Source: Parachlamydiales bacterium (GTDB taxonomy: Bacteria > Chlamydiota > Chlamydiia > Chlamydiales > SM23-39). Taken from it: a stretch of 64,000 nt of DNA. A program made the translations under genes and the position numbers. Positions 241-28,072 of the stretch are shown here, in pieces (the first letter of the stretch is position 1; every line of letters starts with the position of its first letter). The stretch covers positions 228,157-292,156 of the forward strand of contig JBNLAH010000001.1 in assembly GCA_050302075.1 (NCBI GenBank). Direction: 5' to 3'. The notes below the pieces were generated by a model. The model had not been told where the DNA came from and did no database searches. It saw nothing but the letters and a program-made list of their open reading frames with translations.

Positions 241-256
241 GTTTAATTTCATATTC

Positions 257-5856: not shown

Positions 5857-6055
5857 ATATCTCTTGTTATTTTTTATTGATGATCCTGTGGCTAGCTCAA
5901 TAATATAGCAGCCAAAATTTGAAGTAAATTTTCGCAAAAATTCTCATTTATTTTAAGAACTACCGTTATCTATAGAATGCAATAAACATGATGTAGCAAT
6001 GATAGATTGCGACTAAAACTTTATAAAAGATAATCAAAATAAAGACTGAACCAAG

Positions 6056-6523: not shown

Positions 6524-6806
6524 ATTTGCTTTTTTTTGAGGAATTATTCCAACTAGTATTTAAAAAAACAAGTCCTTGAATATTTTGAAGTGAAAAAGGA
6601 ATAGCTTTTAGAGACAGAGAAATAGAAAACCGGTTTTGCTAGTTGATTCTGATAAAAAGCTTTTTATTCATTAATTTACTCACTTATACCTGGAAATTTG
6701 AAGAAAAGAATCTATGAAAATATCAGATAGGAAAAATTCATGTTTAAATTTCGGCGGTTGGTATTTCCAGAATACTTTACAATCCAAGTTCGATGAGGAA
6801 TAAAAG

Positions 6807-8418: not shown

Positions 8419-8604
8419 GAGCTATTGCAGAGTAAGATAAAATAACCTTAACCTACACTAAACCAACATCTTAATTTCAATCTTCTTTGTTTTTTTATTC
8501 GTTTAATTTTGGAAAAATTACAATTAATTAATTTAATGTTCGGTTTTTTTATTGATTGTTTTTATTTTTATGTTTAATAATTTCTATTTTTTATAGGAGT
8601 TATT

Positions 8605-9177: not shown

Positions 9178-9549
9178 TTCGATCGTGTTGGTATCTAGCT
9201 GATATATCCTTATATAAAGCACCGCATTAAGCAAAACTTTTTATTAGGGAGAGTTTTTACGCAATTTTTTCTCCCTACAATAAGTTGCTGTTGAAGCTGA
9301 TTATTTACAGTTAGATCCATGATTCCATATGTCCAAGCATTTTAATTTTAGAAATAGGATCTAAAAGGCTGGTGAACAAAAACCATTGAAAACTTAGCAA
9401 AAGATATTAAATTATTTTTCTTTAAAAAATAGAAAAATTTTTATTACAGTTTTAGTGAATTTTTTTTAAGTTTAAATCTTAAATTCAGATAATTTACTTC
9501 TGATATCTTTTATTTTCATTTATAATATCTTAGATATTTTGGATTAAAA

Positions 9550-10224
9550 ATGAATTGTGTTGTCAATTTTATTTTAGGAACCATCTGTTCACAAGTAGCA
9601 GATAGAGGATTAGCAAATTCATTGGGTGTAGAAACCCTCAAACATGGGACAAGTTTTTTTTCCTATGCGAATATCCGCAGGCTTGGAGGCGTGCCAAAAT
9701 ATGAAAGTTTTTCATCAAAGTTATTAGCAAATTCTCTCAAAAAGAACTCAAGTTATTTTTATGTGTTTAAGGAAAATATATCTTTTTATAAAGGCTTAGT
9801 GTTGCCACGTATGCACATAATTAACAGCTCTGTTAGGACCATCCAAAAGCAAATTCCTTTTGATTCTTTTCTTGGAAAATCTCTAATTGCCTTAGGTGCA
9901 GCAATAAATGTTATAGCGACCCCCACTATCAATTTTCGATATCGAAAAGAAGAAATAACAGGACGCTTTGAAAGTGACCTTCAGTACCGTTTTGGGAAGT
10001 CAAAAGAGTCTTCAATAGCCTACAAGACTAAGGAAAAAGTAGAGAATTGGCGTATTGGTTCAATTCTAGTTGGAGTAAATGCTTCATGGTTAAATCGAGT
10101 GAAGGAAAATCCCAGACAACTATTAAAGGGTGTAATTCAGCTCATTGGAGCAGTTCTTCTTACTTGGTATGCAGGTAATTCAGTAAGAACTATTTCATTT
10201 GTCGCAGGGGCTATTCTTGCTTGA
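9550..10224 (+). CDS. hypothetical protein with C-terminal hydrophobic segment
   Basis: 224-aa ORF; no motif recognised. Confidence 0.55.
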   Translation: MNCVVNFILGTICSQVADRGLANSLGVETLKHGTSFFSYANIRRLGGVPKYESFSSKLLANSLKKNSSYFYVFKENISFYKGLVLPRMHIINSSVRTIQKQIPFDSFLGKSLIALGAAINVIATPTINFRYRKEEITGRFESDLQYRFGKSKESSIAYKTKEKVENWRIGSILVGVNASWLNRVKENPRQLLKGVIQLIGAVLLTWYAGNSVRTISFVAGAILA

Positions 10225-10273
10225 TCTCCAATATCATCTACCCAAAATGATATTAGGTTGCGATTAAGATTTA

Positions 10274-10309
10274 AAGGCAGAGAGAGATACATTTAGGACT
10301 ACTTTTCTC
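10274..10309 (+). repeat. possible highly degenerate copy of the junction element
   Basis: intergenic GAGAGATACATTTAGGACT (10282-10300) matches GAGAGACGCATTCAGAACT at 15/19. Confidence 0.35.
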
Positions 10310-10412
10310 ACAGTTTTATTTCCATTTATCTTTCTCAAAAAAACAACTGATTTGAATTTTAATTAAGTAATACATAGCATATTCAGCATTCTTAATTATA
10401 ATAATAAGTTAC

Positions 10413-13338: not shown

Positions 13339-13821
13339 TTAAGAATTAACTTGGGGTTTAGGAGAGTGAAAATAGGAAATAAGTTGCTTTGCATTTAAAG
13401 CAAAAAGAGCAATGAAAAGAATGCTTAATGGACTTGATAAATGCATTGAGAGGCCACATCCAAAAATCATTATAACACAGCTCATAATCTTTGCAGCTAT
13501 CATCCAAACTTTATCTAAAGCACTAAAAAGTTTCTCAAGCTTTGGAAGATTTCCAATATTTGCAATTTTTTGTATTCCATACGTCAGAAGAGGCATTGTA
13601 AGTCCAACACTTCCTAATGAAATAATACTTAAATCACTAAGATACAACTCAGATGCTGCAGCCATTAGAAAGATTGAGGAAGCAGGTTGCTGTAAGATTT
13701 TTCCAGCTACCCGTGTAATAGAAGATTCTGAGGATGTCTCCATAAGATTTCCAGCTGCTGAAGACACTCCTACTGAAGCTTCTAAATACATAATTAAATC
13801 ATGTAAATATATTGGACCCAT
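13339..13821 (-). CDS. hydrophobic membrane protein, paralog copy 1 of 3
   Basis: MGPIYL...KILQQPA...QKIANI.NLPKLEK.FS.LDKV shared with 18838-19332 and 21909-22409. Confidence 0.8.
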   Translation of the reverse strand: MGPIYLHDLIMYLEASVGVSSAAGNLMETSSESSITRVAGKILQQPASSIFLMAAASELYLSDLSIISLGSVGLTMPLLTYGIQKIANIGNLPKLEKLFSALDKVWMIAAKIMSCVIMIFGCGLSMHLSSPLSILFIALFALNAKQLISYFHSPKPQVNS

Positions 13822-14135: not shown

Positions 14136-14171
14136 TGGAGATAAAGAGAAGTGTTCAGAATTTTTAACTGG
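14136..14171 (+). repeat. junction element J1 (degenerate)
   Basis: TGGAGATAAAGAGAAGTGTTCAGAATTTTTAACTGG; 27/36 identical to J7. Confidence 0.75.
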
Positions 14172-14296
14172 AAGGAATTTTCAAACAAAATTGGGCAATA
14201 GGCTGTTTAGCCAACAGTTTGTTGTCTAATTAATAGTGATCTAATTTCATAGCCTCCTCAATGACGTGTTTGGAGCTATTAATTGTCTGCTAGGTT

Positions 14297-15586
14297 TTAG
14301 TTTTTACTGTTTAAAGTCTTAAAGCTAGCTCTGTAGCTTGCAACTATGAGTAGTACCATCAAAATAAAAACAAGTATCTTAAGATAGAGAGCTATAGCAG
14401 CAATTGATCCAAAGGTAACTAAGAGTCCTTGCGTGGTCAGTGATGGAACTGCCATCATAATAGGAAGTGCGATCATCTCAGTAACGATTTTGGTTTTGAA
14501 TCGGTTTTGATAGGGTAGATAGAGATATAATATTTGAGTTAAAGGGAAGAACAGAAAGCTAGCAGTAGTCACAAGAAGTCCATTAAAGACTCCTAGCCCT
14601 GGCCAAGATAAAGAGGAACTTAGAAAGATAATCCCTCCTACCAGGATAGATAGGGAGGCATAGAGAGCGGTGGTTTTCCATCCTTTCTTTAAAATGAGCC
14701 AGGTACCTAATATTACCCAAATAATAGAAATTGCAATTGTTGCAGAGACTACAAATCTTAAGTAACTGCCCATAAAAAGTTGGTAATCAGCTGGTTTCAG
14801 AGACTGAGTCTTAATCTGGAACTTAATGAGAATATCTAAAAAGTTTTTGATCATAGTAGAACCAGCTAATAAATAAGCAGCGCTTAAGATAGGAAAGTGA
14901 GTTTGTGATGAAGAAGACTCTTGGGGATGGATCAAACTATCCGGCAATCTTTTCCATGACCAGTTGAAGGTGAAGAAAGAAAAGACTACGAGGGCTATAG
15001 CTGGAATAACCATAGCCATTAGGGACCATTTGGAGGCGCCAATTGCCATTAAGCCTAAATTTGATACAATGGCTCCAGCAACACCCAAGACAAATGCAAG
15101 TGGAATATAATATTTTATTCCTTCAGGTAGGGAAGAAATACGATTAATAAACCCCCAGACAAATAGTGAATAAAGACTAAAGTTGAAAACACTTAGCATT
15201 ATGTACATCAGAGATATAACCCAGTGAGTTATCAAAGGTTTATATATTCCAAACGCTTCTGGTACCCCATTCAGTACCAAATGTTCTTGAAAAAACATTA
15301 GCCCAGTAAGAAGAACTATTACTCCTGTTAAAGCGATTAAAGTGCCCCTAAATACTTTTTCGAAGGGTTTGTAAATTGAAAAAATAAGAAGAGAGAGTGC
15401 CAGGATTATTTGGGGTAAGAATGTAGATACTTTAAGAGCTGGAATTTGAGCAAATCCTAGTTGTTTTCCTATGAGGGCATTTTGAGATAAATGAAAAAGA
15501 GTACTGCTACAAGAGAGGAGCACCAACAGCCATAAAGCTGGAAGAAAGATGAATTTTATGGCTTTTCGTAAGTTGGCATTTGTCAT
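14297..15586 (-). CDS. divergent Npt1/Npt2 (TLC/NTT) family nucleotide transporter-like protein
   Basis: multi-pass membrane protein; SLFVWGFINRI...EG.KYY, KKGWKTTA and YL.LP...RFKTK resemble NTT signature segments. Confidence 0.65.
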   Translation of the reverse strand: MTNANLRKAIKFIFLPALWLLVLLSCSSTLFHLSQNALIGKQLGFAQIPALKVSTFLPQIILALSLLIFSIYKPFEKVFRGTLIALTGVIVLLTGLMFFQEHLVLNGVPEAFGIYKPLITHWVISLMYIMLSVFNFSLYSLFVWGFINRISSLPEGIKYYIPLAFVLGVAGAIVSNLGLMAIGASKWSLMAMVIPAIALVVFSFFTFNWSWKRLPDSLIHPQESSSSQTHFPILSAAYLLAGSTMIKNFLDILIKFQIKTQSLKPADYQLFMGSYLRFVVSATIAISIIWVILGTWLILKKGWKTTALYASLSILVGGIIFLSSSLSWPGLGVFNGLLVTTASFLFFPLTQILYLYLPYQNRFKTKIVTEMIALPIMMAVPSLTTQGLLVTFGSIAAIALYLKILVFILMVLLIVASYRASFKTLNSKN

Positions 15587-15863
15587 GATAAATCCTGTTT
15601 TTTTAATTTTTTAAGCCGCTTGTACTTATAAGCTCATTTTTTCTATCTGATTTTCAACATGCAATCGGGTGCTCTATTCTACATTTTTTAGAACGATTGT
15701 TGCAAAAGGAAAGGAAGTTGGATGCTTCCTTTGCGGTTTCCTTTTTTTAGAGAAAATCTTTCTTAAGGATTTGACTTCATATTAAAATCTGATGGATTTG
15801 CATCTTTATCAGGGTTTTCAATTAAGAGCTTAAAGACTGAGATTGGATACAAAAAGTGTCCAA

Positions 15864-15899
15864 CCAGGTAGGAAGGATGCATTCAGAACTTTTGATTGG
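15864..15899 (+). repeat. junction element J2
   Basis: right 24 bp GATGCATTCAGAACTTTTGATTGG is 23/24 identical to J7; left half degenerate; left flank 15837-15863 is 25/27 identical to 17887-17913. Confidence 0.85.
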
Positions 15900-15966
15900 A
15901 AAAAAGTTGAATCAACTGATATGGTGCCCTTGCTAAAAATAAGGTTTTTGCACAAGAGCTAGTATT

Positions 15967-16806
15967 TTGAAAAAACTCTCTCTACTCCTTTTTCTATTGG
16001 TTATTTCTAAGGGACTTGCTGAAGAGAAATTAACAAGTCATTCATTGCCTACAGTTGTCATCACTTGCGCCTCAGGTGAACTAGGAGGAGCAATAGGAAA
16101 AAAATTGGCAAGTGCAAATAATTTGATTTTGACTGGTCGAAATCTAAAGAAACTTCAAATTCTTCAAAAAGAATTACAATCTAAATTCCCACACAATTAC
16201 GAAATAATTTTGCTAGACTATTGTGATTCATCTTCCATTCATGAATTTGAGAAAACTTTAAAAGTTAAAAAATCTGAAATTTCAGGCCTAGTTTTAATAA
16301 CGCCACGCCCCCAGTTTTGCAGTAGCCTACTAGAGTCTGAAGCAAATTGGATGAGTTTATTTCGACTTACTTTTACAGGTCCTATAGAGGTTCTCAAAAA
16401 AGTATTATCTCACACAGCCTCTCTACGTAAAATAGTTGTAATAGCGGGAACAACATCTGTTCAGCTGATCCCTGAGTATGGACCTACTTGTGTCATAAGA
16501 AGAATGTGGACGACTTATGTGAAAGCACTATCGCACCAGTTGGGTTCTAAAGGAATTTGTATAAACGCCTTATCACCAGGAGTTGTATTAACAGACTTCC
16601 ATGTTGAAAGAATAGCAATTAAAGCAAGACAAAATTATATTGATTACAATGATCAGATGAAGCAAGAGGTCGCGCAAATTCCTCTAGGACGTCATGCACT
16701 ACCTAGAGAAGTAGCGCAAACTGTAAAATTCCTTTTATCAAATGACTCAGACTTTATCAACGGAATCAATTTAGTGGTTGATGGGGGATCTACATTAAGC
16801 TATTAA
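15967..16806 (+). CDS. SDR family oxidoreductase (atypical), N-terminal signal-like segment
   Basis: VITCASGELG, NALSPG and INGINLVVDGG motifs; canonical YxxxK not evident. Confidence 0.8.
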   Translation: MKKLSLLLFLLVISKGLAEEKLTSHSLPTVVITCASGELGGAIGKKLASANNLILTGRNLKKLQILQKELQSKFPHNYEIILLDYCDSSSIHEFEKTLKVKKSEISGLVLITPRPQFCSSLLESEANWMSLFRLTFTGPIEVLKKVLSHTASLRKIVVIAGTTSVQLIPEYGPTCVIRRMWTTYVKALSHQLGSKGICINALSPGVVLTDFHVERIAIKARQNYIDYNDQMKQEVAQIPLGRHALPREVAQTVKFLLSNDSDFINGINLVVDGGSTLSY

Positions 16807-16971
16807 TGCTTATTTACCGTCTTTTTAAGTTTGGGAATAAAGAGAAATGAATTTTTCTAGATATGAGGTTTTTTCATTTAACGCTCTTTCCTAATTAAGG
16901 CATCAGAAGCTAGATCAACAACTATTTATGAGCCAGATAATAATTAACAAACCGACTGTCAAAGGGTACTT

Positions 16972-17502
16972 ATGAAACAGTTAAAGGAAACTATGCCTTC
17001 GCAGCTTGTTAAGTCTCTCGAAGAGATATACCAGCCGGCTGGCTTGAATATTCGTGATTTTGAAAGAGAAACCGAGAGTCAAGATTATGGAGCCTGTCGA
17101 TTCAGGCTAAATAGTCAAAAGATTGTGTTTCGTGTTGCAAAGACTACTCCAAAAAAAGTTGGACAATTTGTTGTTATATGGAAAAGAGCTGCAAGTGGTG
17201 TTATTGAGCCCTATGAAGTAAAAGACGATGTAAATTTTTTTGTAATTGCAGTACAAGCAAATGGCCATGTAGGTCAGTTTGTATTTCCTAAAAATGTTTT
17301 GCATGCAAAAGGAATTCTTTCAGGGAAAGGCTCTGAGGGCAAAAGAGCAATTAGGGTCTTTCCTGTATGGGATATTACTACAAGTCGACAAGCTAAGAAT
17401 ACTCAAGCATGGCAGCTTGATTATTTTTTCGAAATCACTAAAAATCAAGAAGAGAACATTTCAAATATTCAAAAAAGGTATAAGTATGACAATAAGTCCT
17501 AA
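16972..17502 (+). CDS. MepB family protein
   Basis: FRVAKTTPKKVGQFV.IWKR, GQFVFP, GKRAIRV.P.W and TQAWQL motifs. Confidence 0.85.
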   Translation: MKQLKETMPSQLVKSLEEIYQPAGLNIRDFERETESQDYGACRFRLNSQKIVFRVAKTTPKKVGQFVVIWKRAASGVIEPYEVKDDVNFFVIAVQANGHVGQFVFPKNVLHAKGILSGKGSEGKRAIRVFPVWDITTSRQAKNTQAWQLDYFFEITKNQEENISNIQKRYKYDNKS

Positions 17503-17857
17503 GCCCAACCTCCAGCTTGTTTATGTATCTGATATAAAGCATTCAACAGATTTTTATAAAATGATTTTTAAGGCTGAACCAGTGTTTACAAGTCCTCGTT
17601 ATGTGGCATTTTCGGCTGGAGAAGGCGCATTGTTTGCTATTTGGGCAGGAGGAACAGTTCCTGATGTATCTTCTCCCAGATATTCTGAGGTGGGAATTAT
17701 GCTACCTTCTAATGAAGCTGTAGACCAGCTCTATGAGGAATGGAAGCAGAATTCTGATATTAACATCGTTCAGGAACCCCAGACTGAAGTTTTTGGTCGT
17801 ACTTTTCTTGTAAAAGACCCTGATGGTCATATTATTCGCGTTTGCCTAAAAGATTAA
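17486..17857 (+). CDS. VOC/glyoxalase-bleomycin resistance family protein
   Basis: LVYVSDI..S.DFY and FGRTFLVKDPDGHIIRV; ATG 17486 overlaps the end of the MepB gene. Confidence 0.85.
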   Translation: MTISPKPNLQLVYVSDIKHSTDFYKMIFKAEPVFTSPRYVAFSAGEGALFAIWAGGTVPDVSSPRYSEVGIMLPSNEAVDQLYEEWKQNSDINIVQEPQTEVFGRTFLVKDPDGHIIRVCLKD

Positions 17858-17918
17858 TGAAATAAGATGTTCAAACCCGTAATCCGCTGAGATTGGATGA
17901 AAAAAGTGTCCAATTAAT

Positions 17919-17954
17919 TGGAGGTGGAGAGACTCGTTCAGAACTTTTAATTTG
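17919..17954 (+). repeat. junction element J3
   Basis: TGGAGGTGGAGAGACTCGTTCAGAACTTTTAATTTG; 32/36 identical to J7; first 14 bp identical to the tmRNA 3' end. Confidence 0.92.
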
Positions 17955-18209
17955 ATGAAAGCTCATCAAAGTTCTCTCTTTTTAAACTCCTTTTATCATA
18001 TCCCCAGATCAGAGTCTTACGTGTTTCTAGTTTAGACAATTTTGTGCTTTCAAACCGACTTTCAGAAACGCTTTAAACTTCATGATCTATTTTTCTGGGA
18101 TGTCTCCAAAATTTCTCTTTTAAAAATAGTTTATTGGTAAATTTTAAGTTGTTTTTTTTGTTAATATTGATAAAGTTTTGCCCCACTTTAGAAACCTAAG
18201 GAGTATAAT

Positions 18210-18755
18210 ATGTGTGTTAGTTTTAGAAAACTTGGTACTGCGATTCTTGGAGCAAGTGCAGCTGGTTATGCTGCTGGAAGATTTAGCAATCAAAGACAAG
18301 TGCAAGCACAAATAGATGCTAGGGTAGAAAGTGCATATCTGCAGGCGCAACGAGAGGCAAAAGCTAAGATGCGCGAGCAAATGTACAATCGACTAGGAAT
18401 TGTGAGATTTGGTAATGCGCGAGCAAATTATGCTCCTGCTTTTGTTGTAGCAACAGTACCTCCATTTTCTGATATGCCAGTAGCTAAATTTGAAGGAGGG
18501 GGCATCCTTCCTGGTAGTGGTATAATGATGGACAAGGTGCGTATGACTGGCCAAAATGTATCTGAATGTCTAGCTGAATGTGTGGATGCTATAGAAGAGG
18601 ATCAAGCTCTTATTGTTATACACGATGGGCAGGCAGTGTTCGTTATAGGTTGTGGAGGACGTCCTGAATCGGATTGGAGTGCAGTACGCAAAGCTTTAGG
18701 AATTAATGAAAGTGTTTCAGGGGGGAAGATAACAGATGTTGACAATAGCATCTAA
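18210..18755 (+). CDS. hypothetical protein with N-terminal hydrophobic segment and short coiled coil
   Basis: 181-aa ORF preceded by an AAGGAG ribosome-binding site. Confidence 0.65.
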   Translation: MCVSFRKLGTAILGASAAGYAAGRFSNQRQVQAQIDARVESAYLQAQREAKAKMREQMYNRLGIVRFGNARANYAPAFVVATVPPFSDMPVAKFEGGGILPGSGIMMDKVRMTGQNVSECLAECVDAIEEDQALIVIHDGQAVFVIGCGGRPESDWSAVRKALGINESVSGGKITDVDNSI

Positions 18756-18837
18756 TGTGAGTTGATTCAGAAAATACTATCAAATCATTCTCTCTAGCCT
18801 TCTTATAATTGCATGTCAAGCTGTTCTTTTAATATAT

Positions 18838-19332
18838 TTAAGAATTGACTTGGGCTTTAGAATTTTGAAAATAGGGCATAAGTTGCTTTGTATATAAAAC
18901 AGCATTTAATGCAAAAAGACCTATGAAAAGAAGGATTAGTGGACTTGATAAAGATGCTGAGAGGTTATACCCAATAATCATTGCACCACAGCTCATAACC
19001 TTTGCAGCTATCGACAAAACTTTATCTAAAGTACTAAAAAATTTCTCAAGCTTTGGAAGATTTGCAATGTTTGCAATTTTTTGCATTCCATGCGTTATAA
19101 GAGGCGCTATTAGCCCAATGCATCCTGATAAAATAGTGATTTCGTTTCTATAGTAAAAACCAGATACTATGCTCATTGTAAAGAGTGAGAAAGCAGGTTG
19201 CTGTAAAATTTTTCCAGCTATCTTACTAGTAGAAGATTCTGGTCTTGTTTCAATAAAGTTTCCAGCTGTTGAAGACAATCCTGTTGCAGCCATCAAGTAC
19301 ATAAATGGCCTATCTAAATATCCTGGTCCCAT
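18838..19332 (-). CDS. hydrophobic membrane protein, paralog copy 2 of 3
   Basis: homologous to 13339-13821 and 21909-22409, including the flanks. Confidence 0.8.
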   Translation of the reverse strand: MGPGYLDRPFMYLMAATGLSSTAGNFIETRPESSTSKIAGKILQQPAFSLFTMSIVSGFYYRNEITILSGCIGLIAPLITHGMQKIANIANLPKLEKFFSTLDKVLSIAAKVMSCGAMIIGYNLSASLSSPLILLFIGLFALNAVLYTKQLMPYFQNSKAQVNS

Positions 19333-19843
19333 AATTTTACCTATTATTAATAGGTCTCTATTTTATATTAATTAAAATAAATAAACAAGAAACTAGATTA
19401 TTTTATAATTACTTTGGGTATATATTGTAATTTAATTTCTAGTTTTTTATTTAAAATGTTATATTATTAATTGCCGTAAATAACTGCAAGTTTGTTTCTT
19501 ATATTTTTTCCCCATTTATACTAATTTGTAGATATCTGAGAAATATTTCAAAGTAATAAAAATTTTTTTTTAATGTTTGTCTTCAATTGCGCTCAGTTAT
19601 TTTAATCTATTCAAATATATTTCTAAAAAACTGGGATTAGGAAATTACTTGTAAGTCTTATGATATAATTCATAAGATCATTGTAAAATTCAATTAAGTT
19701 AAGTCAAAATAAAGCGAAACAAAAAGCAAACTGAATGAAGCTTTTGCCTTAAAAGTAAACATTGCTCGTAAAAGATAAGCTTTCTTTCACAATCGAAAAA
19801 AAACTTAACAAGTCCCTCAACATAAATGTTTTCATTTGCAAAA

Positions 19844-19879
19844 TGGAGGTGGAGAGACGAGTTCAGAACTTTTGACTAT
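19844..19879 (+). repeat. junction element J4
   Basis: TGGAGGTGGAGAGACGAGTTCAGAACTTTTGACTAT; 31/36 identical to J7. Confidence 0.92.
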
Positions 19880-20055
19880 GCTTTGAAAAGAAATCTTTTT
19901 CATTTACGTGGGAGAGGATGTTAAGTAGATCATTTTTATACAAGACAAAAAGGGAACATAAATAAAACTGCATTCAGCTTTTATCTTCAAAATAAATAAA
20001 TATATCTGCCATAATTTTCCGATTTAAAAAACATATCTTTAAATGGATTTAGATT

Positions 20056-21693
20056 ATGAAGTGTTATATAAAAAGTTTTTGTAAATTGTTTAGTGTTTTT
20101 CTAGCTGTAATCGGGTGTTTGTCTTCCCAACCATTATTCTCTGAAGCTTTAAAAACTGAAATGTTTTCTGTCGAAAAACCAGTTTTGCCAAAAATTTCCA
20201 ATCTTCAACTCCCAACACTAAACTCTGAAGTCTGTTCAAATCAAGACGGAAAAATACTACAGAGTTATAAAAAGAAGTTTGAAAAAAAATATGGCCGTAA
20301 TTTTTTAAAAAAACAGTGCAATTACAATTTTCTTTCTCTGGTTTGTAAAAAAGATTTGCAATGTGCTACTAGCATGCAAAAAAAAGCAGTTCAATTCCTA
20401 AAAATGATCTTTGAAGAACTCTCTAAAGCCAATTATAGCAAAGAAGACTTTCGTCATTATATGAACTGGTCTTTGAATATTTCTAGTTCATTATTTTTTG
20501 AAAAATATCTTTTTGCAGAGGAAGAGTTAAATGATTTATTTTACAAGCTCAATGATATTTCTGTCAGATCTCTCACTCCTAGATCAGCAGAAGAAAAAGG
20601 AAGGCATGAGGCATTTGCCTTAAAAAGCAAAAATGGGAAAGTTGCAGCTTTGATAAAAGTTGTAAAAGGTCCTAGGAATGCTTGGGCTAAAGTAGCACCT
20701 ATCATGGAGCAAAACGGTTCTGCAGGTCTTTATGAAAAGGTGGGTTATGATATTGATGTAATCTTAGGTTTGAAAATGACCCCGGCCACGTTGCTTGGGA
20801 AAATGCAATTAGAAAATGGTGAGACTGAAGATGTGGTCATCCAAAACTTTATTTCTAACTCCATTGATTTAGGTAATCTTTTGTATCGAGAAGATGGTGC
20901 TGAACTTATTATGAGCATTCCTACAGCTCCAGCTCAGATGATGGCCTTAAGTGGTATGATTAAAGGTCGTTTAGGTGGACACTTGGGTAATTATCTGTTT
21001 CATTTAAAAGATGGAGTAATAGATACAGTTTATGATATTGATTTAGAAGAACTTTTACCTCCTTGCAATCGACTTGAAAAAGGAATGACTCTATACCCTT
21101 TAAAAGAAGATAGAAATCAAGCCGATCGAATCAATGTATCTGATCTTAGCTCAGATTTACAGGAAATGGCTTATAAATCTGCTCCCTTATGTAGAATGTG
21201 TATTTTAGGATTACCACAGAATGGAAAGCCTTTTGAAAGGGCATGTTTGAAAATTATTGTGCATGATTTGCTTCCCTGTTTGCTAGATGAGTATCATGAA
21301 TATTTAAATGATGAAAAAGAAATTAGAAGAGAGTGCTTGCAAGCTCAAAAGGAACGTCTTTTAAAAATTCAGGAAATTTGCAAACAGCAATTAGAACTTC
21401 CTGAAATTTCGCTAACTCCAAGAGACCTTTATTTTTATCTTTTTGGAGGAAAACATCTTTATAAATTAGCCCGTGAAAGAGGATATCCTCCAATTATTAT
21501 TTTCAATCAAGTCATTGGAGATCCTCTTCAACATAGTATGATTGATTTTTCACGTCCTGAAAAAATGCCTTTTTGTAAATTTTTGAATGAGAGAGATACT
21601 TCAGAGCAGAAAAAAGCTCATAGTGATTTTATATTTGATAATCTGCTTATCTTAGAAAATCAAGAATCTCTAGCAGGTCAAGGCAATCAATAA
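20056..21693 (+). CDS. exported protein with PI3/PI4-kinase/HipA-like fold (possibly catalytically atypical)
   Basis: signal peptide; VAALIK, EKVGYDID..LGL..TP.T, IQNFI, GHLGNYL and IDLE resemble PI4K-type motifs. Confidence 0.5.
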   Translation: MKCYIKSFCKLFSVFLAVIGCLSSQPLFSEALKTEMFSVEKPVLPKISNLQLPTLNSEVCSNQDGKILQSYKKKFEKKYGRNFLKKQCNYNFLSLVCKKDLQCATSMQKKAVQFLKMIFEELSKANYSKEDFRHYMNWSLNISSSLFFEKYLFAEEELNDLFYKLNDISVRSLTPRSAEEKGRHEAFALKSKNGKVAALIKVVKGPRNAWAKVAPIMEQNGSAGLYEKVGYDIDVILGLKMTPATLLGKMQLENGETEDVVIQNFISNSIDLGNLLYREDGAELIMSIPTAPAQMMALSGMIKGRLGGHLGNYLFHLKDGVIDTVYDIDLEELLPPCNRLEKGMTLYPLKEDRNQADRINVSDLSSDLQEMAYKSAPLCRMCILGLPQNGKPFERACLKIIVHDLLPCLLDEYHEYLNDEKEIRRECLQAQKERLLKIQEICKQQLELPEISLTPRDLYFYLFGGKHLYKLARERGYPPIIIFNQVIGDPLQHSMIDFSRPEKMPFCKFLNERDTSEQKKAHSDFIFDNLLILENQESLAGQGNQ

Positions 21694-21711
21694 AAAGTCG
21701 AAATTTAGAAA

Positions 21712-21742
21712 AAAATGAGGCAACAAACTGTTGCCTCATTTT
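21712..21742. terminator. bidirectional intrinsic terminator-like hairpin
   Basis: AAAATGAGGCAACA / TGTTGCCTCATTTT perfect 14-bp inverted repeat just after the stop at 21693. Confidence 0.8.
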
Positions 21743-21795
21743 CAACAGCTTACTGGCAAATATTAATAATAGTGATCTGAGTTCATAGGATTTAA

Positions 21796-21831
21796 GGGGA
21801 GTGTAGGGATAAATTCAGAACTTTTGATTGG
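21796..21831 (+). repeat. junction element J5 (left half degenerate)
   Basis: GGGGAGTGTAGGGATAAATTCAGAACTTTTGATTGG; 28/36 identical to J7, last 18 bp identical. Confidence 0.8.
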
Positions 21832-21908
21832 CATGGGGTTATAGTAATGTCTTCTCATCCCCCCTATAACATGCTTATAATAACACTTAAGCTATTCTTT
21901 TAATATAT

Positions 21909-22409
21909 TTAAGGATTAACGAGGTCTTTAGAAGGTTGAAAATAGTGCATAAGTTGCTTTGTATATAAAACAGCATTTAATGCAAAAAGACTTAAGAAAA
22001 GAAGGATTAGTGGACTTGATAAAGATATTGAGAGCTTATATCCAAAAATCATTGCACCACAGCTCATAACTTTTGCAGCTATCGACAAAACTTTATCTAA
22101 AGTACTAAAAAATTTCTCAAGCGTTGGAAGATTTGCAATATTTGCAATTTTTTGCATTCCAAGCGTTAGAAGAGGCATTGCAAGTCCAACACTACCTAAT
22201 AAAATATAGCTCCTGAGTCCAAGATCTAGATCTAGATCTGATACTTCATTCATTAGAAGGATTGAGACAGCAGGTTGCTGTAAGATTTTTCCAACTACCT
22301 TACCGATAGAAGATTCTGAGTCTGTTTCAATGAAGTTTCCAACTGTTGAAGACAATCCTGCTGTAGCCATCAAGTACATAATTGGCTTATCTAGATATAT
22401 TGGTCCCAT
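21909..22409 (-). CDS. hydrophobic membrane protein, paralog copy 3 of 3
   Basis: homologous to 13339-13821 and 18838-19332. Confidence 0.8.
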   Translation of the reverse strand: MGPIYLDKPIMYLMATAGLSSTVGNFIETDSESSIGKVVGKILQQPAVSILLMNEVSDLDLDLGLRSYILLGSVGLAMPLLTLGMQKIANIANLPTLEKFFSTLDKVLSIAAKVMSCGAMIFGYKLSISLSSPLILLFLSLFALNAVLYTKQLMHYFQPSKDLVNP

Positions 22410-22623
22410 AATTTTACCATTAGTTAATTAACTATGTGTTAATTATATATTAATTAAAATAAATAGACAAGAATCTGATTTTTTAATAATAATTACTTGA
22501 TATTTATATAATAATATAGTTGCGTTTTTAATTTAAAATGATGTTTTTTATAAAATAAATTACGGCAAGTAGCTATAAGTTTAAATAACTTGAATCAGTT
22601 CTTTATAGCCCTTTGCTACAAAT

Positions 22624-22659
22624 TAACAGTGGAGAGACGCTTTCAGAACTTTTGATTGG
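22624..22659 (+). repeat. junction element J6
   Basis: TAACAGTGGAGAGACGCTTTCAGAACTTTTGATTGG; 31/36 identical to J7. Confidence 0.9.
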
Positions 22660-22717
22660 GATAATTTCGCTAAAAAGGCTATAACTTTTTCTAAAATTTA
22701 TATCAGTAGAAGAGCCT

Positions 22718-22774
22718 ATGGATAGAGGAGAAGTAATACTTTACACAACAGCAGATGGTCAGACCTCCATCTAA
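22718..22774 (+). pseudogene. N-terminal remnant of a RhuM/Fic-associated family gene
   Basis: ATG...TAA reads MDRGEVILYTTADGQTSI*, resembling the GE(I/V)ILYxTxDG start of RhuM-family proteins. Confidence 0.55.
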
Positions 22775-22786
22775 TATATTTCTGAG

Positions 22787-23029
22787 ATGCCATTCATTAT
22801 TTTAAGAGCAAAAAACTCAAATAAGATAGGTATGTTGCGGACATCTGCTATAGAGCTCGGAATCAAGTTTGTGGATTTTACTGATACAATTACAATTGGT
22901 ACTTATCAAGAGCAGCTAGAGCGAACAAAAGTCACTCAGAAAGCTGATCTAATTTACTATGGAATCGTATTATTTGGTGATTGGGAAAAAGTACCAGAAT
23001 TGACTAAAAAGTTTTCTCTCTGGAAGTAA
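22787..23029 (+). pseudogene. DUF2000-like protein, N-terminally truncated
   Basis: PFIILRA.NS..I, DFT.T, YYGI.LFG and LTKKFSLWK C-terminal pattern; only 80 aa. Confidence 0.55.
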
Positions 23030-23041
23030 GGCCTGAATATC

Positions 23042-23929
23042 ATGAATATTTCAATAGATGCTTCTCTAGTCAGTCGTTTGATTGCCTCTCAATTTCCTAA
23101 CTGGAAACATCTTCCTATTGAACCTGTAGCGATGAGTGGGTGGGATAATCGAACCTTCCATTTAGGTAAAAAAATGTTGGTTCGCCTTCCAAGCAAAGCA
23201 GATTATGAACTGCAAGTGGAAAAGGAGCATGAGTGGTTACCAAAACTCGCTCTAGCGCTTCCAGTTTCAATTCCTATTCCTTTGGCAATGGGCAGGCCAG
23301 AGTATGGGTATCCTTGGAAATGGTCGATTTATCAATGGCTTGAAGGTGAGACTGTAGCTACTGATTTGCCGAGTGATTTAGTTGCATTTGCCCTTGATCT
23401 TGCCAGTTTTCTGAAAGCTTTACATAAAATCGATACTGAGGGAGGGCCCTCGCCAGGATTACACAGTTTTTATCGAGGTGGACCGTTATCAATTTACGAT
23501 TCGGATACACGTAAAGCAATTCTTTCCTTAAAAAGGAAAATTGATGCAAAGACAGCAACGGATATTTGGGAAAAAGCTTTATCAACTTCTTGGAAGGATC
23601 ATCCTGTGTGGGTTCACGGAGACATCAGCGCCGGCAACCTTTTAGTTAAAGCTAATAAACTTTGTGCTGTGATTGATTTTGGGCAACTAGCAGTAGGTGA
23701 TCCAGCATGTGATCTTGCTATCAACTGGACGTTATTTTATGGGAAAAGTAGGAATGCCTTTCAAAAGGCATTTTCTTTTGATGAAGATACTTGGGTACGG
23801 GCTCAGGGGTGGGTTTTATGGAAAGCGTTAATTGTAGCAGTTGGTGGTACCAATCCAAGTAATTTCGAGTCGAAGCAGTGTTGGCGTATTCTTGAAGAAG
23901 TAATAGAAGATCACCGTAAGTCTAATTGA
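23042..23929 (+). CDS. aminoglycoside phosphotransferase (APH/choline kinase) family protein
   Basis: GWDNRTF, VRLP, HGDISAGNLL, VIDFG and GDPACDLA motifs. Confidence 0.9.
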   Translation: MNISIDASLVSRLIASQFPNWKHLPIEPVAMSGWDNRTFHLGKKMLVRLPSKADYELQVEKEHEWLPKLALALPVSIPIPLAMGRPEYGYPWKWSIYQWLEGETVATDLPSDLVAFALDLASFLKALHKIDTEGGPSPGLHSFYRGGPLSIYDSDTRKAILSLKRKIDAKTATDIWEKALSTSWKDHPVWVHGDISAGNLLVKANKLCAVIDFGQLAVGDPACDLAINWTLFYGKSRNAFQKAFSFDEDTWVRAQGWVLWKALIVAVGGTNPSNFESKQCWRILEEVIEDHRKSN

Positions 23930-24094
23930 TACTCTCTCAATTTAATTTAATAATCCTGACTTGATCCATTTTTTCAGATTGATACTTGATTTTGCAAAAG
24001 CATCTGCAGGACTTTTATTAAAGGGGGCAGGCCAAGGACGAAGGTTAGGGTAGCGTTACAGCTGGGATTTTTAGTTACATGTCACTAAAAACAA

Positions 24095-24122
24095 AAGGCT
24101 TTAGCCGTAAAACTAAAGCCTT
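24095..24122 (-). terminator. terminator-like hairpin immediately left of J7
   Basis: AAGGCTTTAG / CTAAAGCCTT 10-bp inverted repeat with an A-run on its left (U-tract on the minus strand). Confidence 0.7.
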
Positions 24123-24131
24123 AAAATTAGT

Positions 24132-24167
24132 TGGAGGTGGAGAGACGCATTCAGAACTTTTGATTGG
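24132..24167 (+). repeat. junction element J7 (reference copy)
   Basis: TGGAGGTGGAGAGACGCATTCAGAACTTTTGATTGG; first 14 bp identical to 27670-27683. Confidence 0.93.
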
Positions 24168-24293
24168 TCTAAAATGGATCAAAATTTTAATGTAATTAAC
24201 TGTTATTTAGTCAGTTAAGCTTTTGTTGTTGACGTTGAGAATTGGATAGAATATACTGCAGTTGTTGATTAATTGATGTAAATACTATCCAAT

Positions 24294-24920
24294 ATGAAAA
24301 GAAAATCAAAAGCTATTCGAGATAAAGCTATTGAAATATTTAAGCTTCATGGAGGTATTCTCAGATCTTCAAAGGCTATTAAGGAAGGAATACATCCTCG
24401 TATTCTTTATGAATTACGTAATCAGGGTATTATTGAAGAGCTTCAAAGGGGATTATATGCTTTAACCGATTTACCTGACATTGAAGATCCTGATTTAGTT
24501 GCAATTTCAAAAATGATACCTGATGGAGTTATTTGTTTAATATCGGCTCTTTATTTTCATCGTTTGACAGTACAAATTCCAAGATGGATAGATATTGCAG
24601 TTAAGAGAAAATATGTTCCTCCTAAAGTCAAACATCCTCCAATCCAAATTCATTGGTTTTCAGATAAATTTTATAAATCAGGCATAGAAAAATATAATTT
24701 TGGGGGAGCTGAAATAAAAATATATTCTCGAGAAAAATCGATTATTGATTGCTTCAGATTGAGAAAAAAAATAGGGATTGATGTTGCTGTAGAAGCTTTG
24801 AAGAATTATTTAAAACAGGATAATCTTAATATTCATCTTTTGTTGGATTTTGCAAAGGAATCGAGAGTAATTAAATTATTAGAACCATATCTACAGGCTT
24901 TAATTTATGATCAATCATAA
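24294..24920 (+). CDS. abiEi: type IV toxin-antitoxin AbiEi-family antitoxin
   Basis: N-terminal wHTH-like segment ending RGLY; ICLISAL.FH.LT and YS.EK.I.D.FR motifs; overlaps the toxin gene. Confidence 0.85.
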   Translation: MKRKSKAIRDKAIEIFKLHGGILRSSKAIKEGIHPRILYELRNQGIIEELQRGLYALTDLPDIEDPDLVAISKMIPDGVICLISALYFHRLTVQIPRWIDIAVKRKYVPPKVKHPPIQIHWFSDKFYKSGIEKYNFGGAEIKIYSREKSIIDCFRLRKKIGIDVAVEALKNYLKQDNLNIHLLLDFAKESRVIKLLEPYLQALIYDQS

Positions 24921-25791
24921 CATAAAAAACATTTCAGTTTCAGTAAAAGCCCGTCTATTAAACCTTGCTCGCAATTCAAAAAGACCTTTTCAGGAATTAT
25001 TGCAATATTATGGAATGGAGCGTTTTCTTTTTAGACTATCAGAATCTAATCATAGAGATGTATTTATTTTAAAAGGAGCTCTTCTTTTAAAAGTTTGGAG
25101 AATTTCTGATTCTCGAGCAACGATGGATATTGATACTTTAGCAAGAACATCAAATTCTTTGGAAAATCTTAATAAAATAACAAAAGAGATATGCGAGCAT
25201 GTTCCATCTATTGATGATGGTGTTGAATTTCTTTCGTCTTCCGTTAGAGTAGAAAAAATGCAATTGCAGAAAGAGTATGAAGGTATTCGAATTCGTTTTG
25301 AAGGCTGTCTTGGTTCTGCAAAAATTCCAATGCAAATTGATGTTGGGTTTGGGGATGTTATTACTCCTGCGGTTGAAGAATACCAATATCCAAATCTTCT
25401 AGATTTTCCAGGACCAAAACTTAAAATGTATCCTCAAGAAACACTTATTGCAGAGAAAATTTTAACAATGGTTGAAAAAGGAGAAACAAATAGTAGAATA
25501 AAGGATTTTTATGACGTTTGGCTTCTAATTCGACACAATACATTTTCTCATGAGATATTGAAATTAGCTTTGGATAGAACTTTTAAATCTCGTAATATGC
25601 AATATAATTTCAAAACAGTTCGATCTTCGATTGAAATATATTTAAAAAGCGTTCAGGCAAATTTATTATGGGAAAGATTTAAACTAAAGAAAATACCTCA
25701 GATATATCAGCATATTTCATTTGAAATTTTAACAAATGAAATAATCAATCTTTTAGAGAAGATAGAAGAAAATATTTTACTCAAATTATAA
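24907..25791 (+). CDS. abiEii: AbiEii/AbiGii nucleotidyltransferase toxin
   Basis: ERFL.RL, FILKGA, RATMDID, IAEK and SRIKDFYD motifs. Confidence 0.88.
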   Translation: MINHNIKNISVSVKARLLNLARNSKRPFQELLQYYGMERFLFRLSESNHRDVFILKGALLLKVWRISDSRATMDIDTLARTSNSLENLNKITKEICEHVPSIDDGVEFLSSSVRVEKMQLQKEYEGIRIRFEGCLGSAKIPMQIDVGFGDVITPAVEEYQYPNLLDFPGPKLKMYPQETLIAEKILTMVEKGETNSRIKDFYDVWLLIRHNTFSHEILKLALDRTFKSRNMQYNFKTVRSSIEIYLKSVQANLLWERFKLKKIPQIYQHISFEILTNEIINLLEKIEENILLKL

Positions 25792-25815
25792 TATTGAGAA
25801 TTAAAATAATAAGCC

Positions 25816-26463
25816 TTAAATAATCTGAAGTCTTAAATTAAAATCAGAAAGATCATAAAAAAATGAATTTTTATGAATATAGGGGTTCATTCTTTGCCTT
25901 TCATTTAGCTCTTTTTCCCAATTTTCCTTATTGTTTAAGGCGTCAGAAGCGGCATCAACAACTATTGCAGATCCAGATAAAATAAGTGCAGTGCTGGTTC
26001 CAGCGCTAAATGGAGCGGCCAAGACACCTACAAGAATTTGACCTATACCAAACCAATATTTCAATTTAACTCCACTAGGCTGTTCTAGTTTGCATAAGTG
26101 AGCCATATTCTTTAAGCTAATCGGTTTTACGGATACAGATCGAGTTTTATAATATATTTGTAAAGCAAAATTCATCATAGGATCTAAAAGCTCCTCATTT
26201 GATAGGCTATGAATAAACTTATCAATGAGCAAAGATCCTTTTTCAAGATCTCCCTTAGAAAGATAAACCGCAGCTCTCATGCCTGTTATTTTGCTTTTCT
26301 GTTCAGGTTCGAAAGTTTCCCATTCGTCCAATGTTTGCAAACTTTCTAAAAACCTCTCTTCTTGAAAGTAATGAATAAAAGACTCTGCATATCGACTACT
26401 TAAAGGAGATGCAAAAATAAATAAGGGAAACGGTAAAAATATAAACAATCTCAGAAAATGCAT
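25816..26463 (-). CDS. hypothetical exported protein with C-terminal hydrophobic hairpin
   Basis: signal-like MHFLRLFIFLPFP start at 26463; Gly/Ala-rich hydrophobic segment GIGQILVGVLAAPFSAG. Confidence 0.6.
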   Translation of the reverse strand: MHFLRLFIFLPFPLFIFASPLSSRYAESFIHYFQEERFLESLQTLDEWETFEPEQKSKITGMRAAVYLSKGDLEKGSLLIDKFIHSLSNEELLDPMMNFALQIYYKTRSVSVKPISLKNMAHLCKLEQPSGVKLKYWFGIGQILVGVLAAPFSAGTSTALILSGSAIVVDAASDALNNKENWEKELNERQRMNPYIHKNSFFYDLSDFNLRLQII

Positions 26464-26663
26464 GAAGTTCCTCCAAACATTTTTATAAAAAGACATCCTG
26501 CAAGTATTGATCCCCAAAGGAGCACTATTCCTTTACGCATTTTTTTTTTGTCATTCATTTGCCAAGCTGTTTTTAGCATTAATATGCTGGGAGGTAATGC
26601 AAAAAAAGAAAATAGTAAAAGTCCTAAACGGACTATAGAAAAAACAATGTATCCTAGTTCCAT
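26451..26663 (-). CDS. small two-TM hypothetical protein
   Basis: 70 aa with two hydrophobic segments; overlaps the start of the downstream gene. Confidence 0.5.
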   Translation of the reverse strand: MELGYIVFSIVRLGLLLFSFFALPPSILMLKTAWQMNDKKKMRKGIVLLWGSILAGCLFIKMFGGTSCIF

Positions 26664-26741
26664 AAAACCCCCATTTTGAGGAAGAAAAATATATATAAAT
26701 AAAAATTATATTGTCAAGTAGCTACGAATGACTTTTGGAAG

Positions 26742-27371
26742 TTAATATTTACTTTTTATGGAATGACTAAGATTCCCTATAAAATAGCATCTAGGACTAG
26801 AAATCAAATGTACACTTTTGGGATCTAATTTTGAGCCAACCGATATTTCTAATTTTACAGTATCAAGTAAATCACATTCTATCTCTATTTCATCATTCAA
26901 TTGCACCTGAGTCAATGAATCTTTTAATATAAGAAGATCGTAATCAAAAGAAACTGTTTTATTTGTTGTTATTAGTTTTACAATAGCAATTTTCTGGCTA
27001 GTAATGTTTTTTAATAGTATTTTCCATTTTATTTCGAATGTTCCTTCCAATTTAAGAGTTATGTAGGGATCTCTTAAAAACGGTACTGAAAAAAAAGTTC
27101 CATCTCCTGTTATATTTTTTGGGGATTCGAATTCAGTATAATTCCATTCCCTGGTCGAATGAAAATAATTTGATGTATTTGAATAGTGGTTATTGATTGT
27201 ATCAGCTTGCTGAATAGAGTTATTGTTGCTGTTATTCATAGAAATAGGATTACCATGTTTAGTCTTAGACTGCACTTTCTGAACAGGAGAATTCTCTTTT
27301 TTTGAGGAAAACGTGAATTTAAACTTATCAAAGATTTTAGGTGACATTTTTTCTATTGGATAATTTAACAA
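26742..27371 (-). CDS. hypothetical protein
   Basis: 209-aa ORF with Asn/Ser-rich N-terminal linker. Confidence 0.55.
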   Translation of the reverse strand: MLNYPIEKMSPKIFDKFKFTFSSKKENSPVQKVQSKTKHGNPISMNNSNNNSIQQADTINNHYSNTSNYFHSTREWNYTEFESPKNITGDGTFFSVPFLRDPYITLKLEGTFEIKWKILLKNITSQKIAIVKLITTNKTVSFDYDLLILKDSLTQVQLNDEIEIECDLLDTVKLEISVGSKLDPKSVHLISSPRCYFIGNLSHSIKSKY

Positions 27372-27375
27372 AAAA

Positions 27376-27395
27376 GCCTATCAGATTTGATAGGC
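27376..27395 (-). terminator. terminator-like hairpin left of J8
   Basis: GCCTATCA / TGATAGGC flanked by an A-run and a T-run. Confidence 0.7.
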
Positions 27396-27415
27396 CTTTT
27401 GACTATATTTGTCAA

Positions 27416-27439
27416 TGAAGGTGGAGAGAATCGAACTCT
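27416..27439 (+). repeat. junction J8: duplicate of the tmRNA 3' end (att-like)
   Basis: TGAAGGTGGAGAGAATCGAACTCT is 23/24 identical to 27670-27693. Confidence 0.9.
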
Positions 27440-27486
27440 ATGATTTTTTCTAAACTGGATCAAACTTCGATAAATAACATTAATAA

Positions 27487-27499
27487 TATCAATAAGTTA
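27487..27499 (+). promoter_or_regulatory. IHF-consensus-like site
   Basis: TATCAATAAGTTA fits WATCAANNNNTTR. Confidence 0.4.
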
Positions 27500-27552
27500 A
27501 GTGATGTTCAAATGTTCTATCTTATTTTGGTTTTAGCCGCTTTTTTGCAGTC

Positions 27553-27573
27553 TAGTGCGTAAGTAGTGCGTAA
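27553..27573 (+). repeat. 10-bp direct repeat, possible integrase arm-type sites
   Basis: TAGTGCGTAA at 27553-27562 and 27564-27573. Confidence 0.55.
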
Positions 27574-27634
27574 ATGAATTTAACAAAGCAGATTTTGAAA
27601 TTGTAAATTTAAGATATTTCTCTTTAAAAATAAA

Positions 27635-27661
27635 AGACTTCGCTTGGATTTTGCGAAGTCT
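27635..27661 (-). terminator. tmRNA terminator
   Basis: AGACTTCGC / GCGAAGTCT 9-bp inverted repeat 8 bp downstream of the tmRNA end, followed on the minus strand by a T-rich tract. Confidence 0.8.
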
Positions 27662-27669
27662 AGAATGAA

Positions 27670-28072
27670 TGGAGGTGGAGAGAATCGAACTCTCGTCCTT
27701 AGCAAACTCAATATTAATGACTACATGCTTATCTCCTTTGTTAATAATCTACTCTGATGAAAGGAGCAACACTACAAGTAGATTTAATCCTCGTTGTCTT
27801 GGGTATCTTTTCAGAGGATCAGAGAAAAGGACCCAAACCCAGAAATATGACGGTAGATTCTAAAACTCTGGATCTGATTTTAGGCTACCGGGCGCTTAAA
27901 ACTGTTAGGTCTTAAGCAGCAGCTGCAAAAGTTTCTACTCCAGCAGAGAAGTCAACTTTTACGATTTTGCTTTCTTTAGCAATTATAGTGTAATCGGCTT
28001 TTTAAGAGGCCAACCGATCAACCTCTGCATGCCACTAATACGAAATTTCCAAGTCGAAACCTGTTCACCCCC
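27670..28072 (-). ncRNA. ssrA: tmRNA; tag reading frame 27980-27912 encodes (A)KESKIVKVDFSAGVETFAAAA*
   Basis: 5' GGGGGTGAACAGGTTTCGAC; 3' GAGAGTTCGATTCTCTCCACCTCCA with T-loop; acceptor stem with G3-U70; Ala-ending tag; CCA not encoded. Confidence 0.96.

Follow-up and report, generated by a model that had tools for sequence, protein, structure and literature searches.

The seven copies of a 36-bp block that lie behind the tmRNA gene in this chlamydial genome most probably represent the left-over ends of successively inserted islands, whose attachment (att) site lies inside the gene of a large serine recombinase (LSR); we put the probability of this reading, which covers anatomy and history, at roughly 0.85. 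As far as sequence comparison can establish it, gene and att site overlap, the recombinase has two alternative C-termini, its tail is under coding selection, the crossover falls within block positions 1–4, and the recombinase itself has been lost here. The window, that is the whole stretch of DNA analyzed, comprises 64,000 nucleotides of a chlamydial genome of 1.84 Mb (89 contigs, 96.2% complete) and contains the following features:

14136..27415: seven cargo modules in an array, each 0.8–3.3 kb long and lacking a recombinase, with typical accessory genes
14136..14201, plus strand: J1, decayed P′ arm plus tail, with codon 3 a stop
15839..15868, plus strand: P-arm remnant (recombinase last codons) left of J2, 24/30 identical to the LSR end of locus L072
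15864..15962, plus strand: J2, P′ arm and tail, left part of the arm damaged
17889..17918, plus strand: P-arm remnant (recombinase last codons) left of J3, 23/30 identical to the L072 LSR end
17919..18035, plus strand: J3, P′ arm and tail
19844..19924, plus strand: J4, P′ arm and tail
21796..21903, plus strand: J5, P′ arm and tail
22624..22725, plus strand: J6, P′ arm plus tail, with codon 1 a stop; genome L164 has a near-identical tail
24095..24122, minus strand: hairpin terminator to the left of J7; 24/200 junctions have one of this type
24132..24167, plus strand: J7, attP P′ arm from an LSR island that targets ssrA; conserved 36-bp block reading WRWRDAFRTFDW
24133..24134, plus strand: putative crossover dinucleotide GG of J7 (block positions 2–3)
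24149..24157, plus strand: putative P′ zinc-ribbon-domain motif ATTCAGAAC, +16 to +24 from the putative centre, encoding F-R-T
24168..24218, plus strand: J7 orphan coding tail SKMDQNFNVINCYLVS with stop, last codons of the free-form recombinase, without start and without upstream frame
27416..27669, plus strand: element of 254 bp without genes, from a second family that targets ssrA, with a longer tmRNA 3′ copy (through the T-loop) and a terminator
27552–27574: TGCGTAA direct repeats within the 254-bp element
27670..28072, minus strand: tmRNA gene ssrA, its 3′ end being attB
27670: antisense tmRNA 3′ end, reading WRWRESNSRP and a stop, the tail of the integrated form
27682–27690: T-loop, putative attB zinc-ribbon motif

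According to the preferred reading, each repeat would be the far end (P′ arm) of an island inserted by an LSR of about 500 aa at the extreme 3′ end of ssrA. On the free circle, attP would lie in the last codons of the LSR, which would read EPF-x9-CPTN-WRWRD.FRTFDW-x-K-hydrophobic and end about 18 codons after W12. Strand exchange at approximately TG/G, the last bases of the acceptor stem, would leave the LSR head-on to ssrA and ending in WRWRESNSRP, and integration would strand the true tail at the other end of the island. Since each newcomer enters the same site, islands would stack; the primase-helicase/LSR cores would later have been deleted, leaving cargo headed by orphan tails and interleaved with the ends of a second (tyrosine-type) ssrA element family.

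All seven copies of the block, with their translations, are found on the plus strand at J1–J7 as the initial annotation had described them, and the same holds for the continuation of J7 to the stop at 24218 and for the peptide at the tmRNA junction. An 18-nt pattern taken from the right half of the block matched seven times in the window, against 0.01 matches expected, and a profile built from 148 foreign copies gave ten matches above the cut in the whole genome, the window seven included. The others are two decayed copies on contig C2 (54574 and 55214, separated by 640 bp and remote from all called tRNAs) and one on the 506-bp contig C89 (position 205), which is nearly intact and whose flanks differ from those of the window copies; nothing else in the genome exceeded the cut. 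Two degenerate junctions suspected by eye at about 13255 and 18750 gave no profile score. Every window copy has an in-frame stop at most 30 codons upstream, no open frame leads into the block at any of the seven, and J1 and J6 carry a stop codon within the block itself. Therefore, no window copy is a working gene end, and the copies are no longer translated. The J7-type block is also found at the far end of intact islands, and in another study 11 contigs break off before 24131 and 11 behind 24167.

The cargo of the array comprises a TLC-like transporter, an SDR protein, MepB, a glyoxalase, genes of unknown function, a DUF2000 protein with an APH-family phosphotransferase, and an AbiEi/AbiEii pair. 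No match to PF00239 or PF07508 was obtained in this 96.2% complete genome, in which the LSR is represented by 30-bp remnants beside J2 and J3; the array thus lacks the recombinase gene of its own that defines an autonomous LSR island, and the earlier suggestion that the modules keep only an att remnant agrees with this. An uncharacterized gene of about 165 codons occurs three times in the window (13339–13821, 18838–19332, and 21909–22409; 66–73% amino acid identity), each time left of a junction, and a homolog in genome G306 likewise lies behind a junction. Left of J1, positions 1–13250 hold accessory-type genes (GNAT, Ada, glycosylase, DUF1905) without scored junctions, and possibly represent older, ameliorated parts of the array. 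Elsewhere in the window, three tandem paralogous repeats with a spacing of about 1.6 kb (46118–52732) and a tandem gene duplication of 660 bp (58681–59963) were noted.

The cognate enzyme is found in relatives, where an LSR of about 500 aa reads head-on into the tmRNA 3′ end with the C-terminus CPTNWRWRESNSRP followed by a stop, while the far end of the island carries WRWRD.FRTFDW and a tail. Among the best 30 recombinase loci, 19 contained a tRNA or tmRNA within the locus, four ended in CP[TN][NS]WRWRESNSRP over a tmRNA called by ARAGORN, and two further ones had the same type of end over an uncalled or partial tmRNA copy. Eleven regions from nine genomes, selected for the proximity of motif and recombinase (in one case a recombinase fragment), were studied closely; in all nine selected genomes an LSR reads into the ssrA end (six intact, three broken), with at least one WRWRD junction upstream. 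These junctions lie 6.6–12.6 kb upstream of the intact LSRs, with further recombinase-less modules beyond, and the core of an intact island consists of a CHC2/Toprim/AAA_25 primase-helicase, a small protein of unknown function, and the LSR. The Pfam Resolvase, Recombinase, and zinc-ribbon domains all scored above cut-off in the proteins P0001 and P0030, the catalytic residues R8 and S10 are invariant in 38 close homologs, and the best fold matches of the predicted structure are serine integrases.

A search for recombinases ending in the motif, as the initial annotation had suggested, returned both forms, some of them over ssrA. The C-termini of 71 homologs comprised 60 that are tRNA or tmRNA antisense (38 of these reading WRW[RG][ED][SL]N), three that consist of WRW.D.FRT plus an in-frame tail, and eight of other types. 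Locus L239 has two LSRs in tandem, and the frame of the first continues into the tail that belongs to the second island. Together with the junctions, these LSR ends support the proposal that the recombinase gene contains the att site in its 3′ end and that integration swaps the protein tail. The wider LSR family counts 3,495 clusters (E ≤ 1e-30), and throughout it the distance from the PF motif to the att-encoded residues is fixed (114/118 antisense ends and 17/20 attP-like ends); class counts among 150 distant representatives are rough, as 53 were unanchored and at least three of 12 attP-like calls were false. The LSR retargets among tmRNA, tRNA-Tyr, tRNA-Ile, and tRNA-Asn with little change in attP. 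In the tRNA-Asn lineage, intact tail-form LSRs (L279, 4416–5702; L280; L282, 3543–7150) are followed by LSR-less modules, one of which, at 148 bp, consists of tail and terminator only. Locus L233 carries two long tmRNA 3′ copies 1.3 kb apart (8736 and 10029), the first under an LSR end. No free circular form was found in phage or plasmid records, and none is shown in 13 viral loci, in which the C-termini were left unread; promoter scans stayed at chance level.

The position of strand exchange was bounded by comparing island far ends, matched to their recombinases by proximity, with the target ends. Identity ends at position 4 in one island (L277), at 5 in four (L209, L245, L248, L249), at 8 in one (L225), and at 9 in four (L210, L217, L073, L228); in seven further islands the far end is identical to the target throughout and hence uninformative. 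An automated far-end pairing produced several false partners and was left out of the counts. The flanks left of block position 1 are unrelated. Since the far ends of these ten islands leave the target at positions 5–10, the comparison places the crossover within positions 1–4, at the acceptor end (approximately TG/G), and not at the symmetry axis that had initially been assumed where tmRNA identity ends (position 14). In 23 of 23 LSR ends (P arms) a TCC is invariant although it spans five different codons, and seven of the ten informative islands show its mirror, G[GA]TTGGA, at positions 8–14, which puts the centre between positions 2 and 3. A symmetry scan (0.41 at 2.5, 0.44 at 14, and 0.46 at 16) did not single out a centre, so that positions 1–4 stand as the bound, and we infer the exact centre from the TCC/GGA mirror and the spacing rule of known serine integrases.

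For the Listeria integrase, the zinc-ribbon motif lies at positions 11–19 in attB and 16–24 in attP, as far as the accessible part of the publication states (Rutherford et al., 2013; PMC3783163). With the centre between positions 2 and 3, the T-loop GAATCGAAC falls at exactly 11–19 and ATTCAGAAC of the island end at exactly 16–24. GAAC occupies block positions 23–26 in P′ and 18–21 in the tmRNA arm, a shift of 5 bp given this putative centre. The T-loop may therefore serve as zinc-ribbon motif of attB, with P′ carrying a mimic of it 5 bp further out. A mirrored zinc-ribbon motif was absent from 23 P arms and from the flanks of 16 ssrA ends and 155 junctions; the P arm carries TCC only, and the left flanks of these junctions and ssrA ends show just a weak A/T preference at −1/−2. 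The CCAAYYA elements left of J2 and J3, initially read as inverted matches to the right-hand consensus, are present; they are, however, remnants of the recombinase last codons, as their identity to the L072 end indicates.

The tails behave as coding sequence. Copies were selected on block positions 1–36, with the tail not used in the selection, and 185 distinct junctions gave 178 tails with enough sequence and 154 after removal of similar ones. Codons 13–22 of these 154 tails contained 13 stops in the LSR frame, against 117 and 111 in the other plus-strand frames and 65–98 in the minus-strand frames; shuffled tails had a mean of 114 stops (standard deviation 10), and none of 2000 shuffles was as low as the observed value. 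No stop depletion was found left of the block. Codon 15 is hydrophobic in 85% of the tails with the third base free, conservation beyond W-x-K-hydrophobic is slight, the sequences are very diverse, and the length ranges from 2 to more than 40 codons (median 18). The seven window tails are still open for 9–26 codons, which is a relic of coding selection on the tail.

Within the block, the signal is more restricted than initially claimed, when the whole 12-mer was taken as a conserved peptide. In the 109 copies whose codons 8–12 were unconstrained by the search pattern, R8 was AGA in 102 without any synonymous change, T9 showed three synonymous against five replacement changes, F10 two against 12, and D11 alone had a synonymous excess. 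Codon-position bias, proposed for the block in general, was seen at codons 5, 6, and 11 and was absent from R8-T9-F10. Since WRWR is tmRNA antisense and FRT a motif fixed at the DNA level, the protein signal consists of W12 and the following ten codons.

What the tail does in the enzyme can be approached by structure prediction. AlphaFold gave residues 481–500 of the tail form a pLDDT of 85, with a helix at 487–495, and those of the integrated form values of 54 and 51, the two models being of different proteins (72% identical) with different alignments; the C-terminus of the integrated form is thus predicted to be disordered. Folding of the tail against the enzyme body scored 0.38 against 0.01 for the best control (run agreement of at least 44%, partner pLDDT of at least 56), a mark reached by 116/157 solved pairs and 2/215 mismatched pairs; 18/157 solved pairs and both passing mismatches reached it at no more than 0.60. 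These models weakly suggest that the tail packs on the enzyme body. By analogy with the tyrosine integrase of Mx8, we regard it as somewhat favored that the free-form tail packs on the enzyme and confers full activity, whereas the integrated form would be less active or less stable, holding the island in place. The directionality or stability switch put forward in the initial annotation is a putative role of the tail swap. Strong stop depletion and a fixed register across distant relatives argue that the tail matters in the free form. Nevertheless, most intact LSR genes were found in the integrated form, and so this form may still excise.

A serious competitor, to which we give somewhat less credence, keeps the same anatomy and does without a switch: the overlap would be genome economy, the tail a stabilizing last helix, and both forms would work, with direction set by some directionality factor or by transcription, since read-through from ssrA runs antisense to the LSR gene once this is integrated. 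The slight conservation of the tails speaks for it, as such diversity in sequence and length is more in line with a loose structural requirement than with a precise switch. So does a conserved protein of 158–198 aa with a KQ.EANR.NA..STGP motif, encoded between primase-helicase and LSR in most intact islands (L239, 9452–9970, with equivalents in L066, L068, L070, and L072), which has no Pfam match and might act as a directionality factor or in packaging. In the single island examined for terminators, the minus strand showed none from ssrA to the LSR, again in keeping with this alternative, while stop depletion, the fixed register, and the predicted disorder of the integrated C-terminus count against it.

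The left flanks bear on the history of the array. Among 187 non-redundant flanks, 92 contain terminators (7/180 in the control), 11 contain LSR remnants, and 84 contain neither; the eleven include J3, and the J2 remnant was identified by hand. The hairpin left of J7 is probably the right arm of a second ssrA element family of the tyrosine-integrase type. This arm, with its TGCGTAA repeats, is widespread and occurs in 108/301 Chlamydiota genomes. A regular-expression search found no tyrosine integrase beside the terminator arms, and phmmer placed a tyrosine recombinase beside the arm motif at tmRNA (L327) and at tRNA-Leu (L341), not at most loci. In L118 (minus orientation), three ssrA-end copies about 214 bp apart (1572, 1786, and 2001) carry the same terminator next to another right-hand sequence; they are perhaps a third type of mini-element. 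Serial insertion by two integrase systems, combined with core deletion, explains the mixture of flanks.

It is conceivable, though rather unlikely, that the modules are instead live non-autonomous cassettes, which a visiting or distal LSR would excise and re-insert in trans, as in an integron-like array. If motifs are present only on the ssrA-side arms, any junction could serve as attP and the ssrA end as attB. The lack of a motif in the left flanks (155 junctions, 16 ssrA ends), like that of a mirrored zinc-ribbon motif in the P arms, fits this idea. Further points in its favor are the tail-form LSRs of L279 and L282, where the LSR-less modules behind them carry a repeated terminator arm, the module gene present three times in the window array, the duplication of a module in genome G259, and the recurrence of the J7 module (about 98% identical) in data of two other studies, in one case beside another left flank. 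On the other hand, LSR remnants (11/187), terminators (92/187), and many ends of the second family in the flanks are what stacking and deletion predict, most window copies are decayed, and no junction was scored left of two of the three copies of the 165-codon gene. In addition, no excision joint was found in the likely source sequencing run, which was available as contigs, and these drop rare variants.

More far-reaching, and improbable as a whole, is a joint reading to which we attach a single estimate: a very large LSR family would read the near-universal tRNA T-loop as attB motif, using essentially one arm per site, and direction would be set by the enzyme rewriting its own C-terminus. With one-arm recognition, attL and attR resemble attP and attB, and DNA architecture cannot then set direction. 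If this joint reading were true, a later insertion would give a resident LSR a new tail and reactivate it in the chromosome, and throughout the environmental Chlamydiota the ssrA array would serve as an integron analogue, a cassette platform run by a serine recombinase. Finally, the view that the block is a non-coding repeat of DNA or RNA (just a recombination site, or a regulatory element) and reads as a peptide by chance can be dismissed for this LSR family on the available sequences: WRWR being tmRNA antisense, the lack of synonymous bias at codons 8–10, and the missing upstream frames in the window would fit it, but natural full-length recombinases end in the peptide and only one of the six frames is depleted of stops.

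Tail swapping has precedent in DsiB, in streptococcal rumA integrases, and in phage Mx8. For the ssrA islands of Dehalococcoides, the accessible part of McMurdie et al. (2011; PMC3146451) describes a dsiB 3′ end that always overlaps attL, with the authors' suggestion that DsiB may be fully functional perhaps only on the circle or with the 3′ fragment of the next island; 15 ssrA islands lack an integration module, insertion was inferred to occur in the T-loop, and no conserved tail was noted by the authors. As described there, the systems share a serine recombinase, the ssrA target, tandem islands, and the overlap of recombinase and att site. They differ in that the six-gene module of DsiB, DsiA, a RecF-like protein, ParB, Mom, and a large protein is absent from the chlamydial islands, the TTCAGRSMGMRKCCA motif beside the 20-bp repeat is not in the chlamydial profile (by inspection), and the chlamydial crossover lies at the acceptor end, not in the T-loop. 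Unlike DsiB as published, the chlamydial family also uses many tRNAs.

The serine integrases of streptococcal ICEs at rumA, according to the portion available (Ambroset et al., 2016; PMC4701971), have an att site inside the gene and an exchanged C-terminus, for which a functional difference was proposed; they belong to conjugative elements with a protein-coding target, and that portion describes no stacked orphan tails. The same source reports that the integrase gene of Myxococcus phage Mx8 (IntP) contains attP, that integration replaces 112 C-terminal residues by 13, and that the integrated form is less active. The chlamydial LSR shares with it attP inside the integrase gene and two C-termini, and by analogy Mx8 IntP may be the best functional model for the tail swap, although, in the account accessible there, it differs in tyrosine chemistry, phage origin, and a much longer tail. 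Canonical LSRs (Listeria A118/LI, phiC31, and Bxb1), as far as covered by the available text of Rutherford et al. (2013; PMC3783163), have the same domain order and fold, and their zinc-ribbon positions (16–24 in attP, 11–19 in attB) match the chlamydial ssrA-side arms; on the same basis, the chlamydial enzyme differs in its C-terminal extension across attP, the lack of a mirrored zinc-ribbon motif, and the tRNA/tmRNA targets. The accessible part of the Islander paper (PMC4383910) states that serine recombinases are not known at tRNA genes. Unlike an integron, the array has no tyrosine integrase IntI beside it, the three tyrosine recombinases of this genome lying on contigs C4 and C5 and about 95 kb away on C1; the junctions are explained as LSR arms.

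Staphylococcal SCC composites (CcrAB/CcrC) are likewise stacked by LSRs at the end of one conserved gene and include segments that lack a recombinase. They have another target, and no CcrA partner was seen in the chlamydial islands of the nine-genome set; the CcrA/B/C equivalog scores were 35–96 bits against cut-offs of 700–900 (CcrB: 74–96 against 900). Since neither the DsiB module and motif, compared by published description, nor the Ccr scores fit, we regard the chlamydial enzymes as a separate LSR family. In openly accessible main texts, we found neither this family nor the ssrA arrays of chlamydiae described, and a prior description is possible in subscription journals or supplements; the accessible parts of three papers (PMC13626063, PMC12884075, and PMC5862659) contain nothing on either.

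Within the phylum, a scan of 401 Chlamydiota genomes with a 26-nt pattern (at most two mismatches) found the junction motif in 157, often several times in runs on one contig, while the reversed pattern gave no match and none of the 30 genomes of the small-genome family f4 contained the motif. A Recombinase domain occurs in 91/400 Chlamydiota genomes. A second LSR subfamily of 567–621 aa (L034–L040), ending over tRNA-Ser, is also present in the phylum, and a broken LSR homolog (L324, 15001–16344; 63% identical) lies on a plasmid record of Neochlamydia sp. S13.

New here are this phylum-wide count and the coding signal measured in orphan tails, as well as the att map, with the T-loop as putative attB motif and a possible one-sided recognition. 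Since both enzyme forms are available as natural pairs, the family lends itself to testing whether a recombinase is controlled with no directionality factor besides itself, and a serine integrase that enters the 3′ end of tRNA and tmRNA genes via the T-loop could become a broad-host integration tool. The tail swap also explains spurious C-termini in annotations, and the anatomy explains why island finders that assume tyrosine integrases miss LSR elements at ssrA and tRNA genes. For the environmental chlamydiae, obligate intracellular as they are, the occurrence of the motif in 157/401 genomes means that they have a busy gene-traffic site at ssrA.
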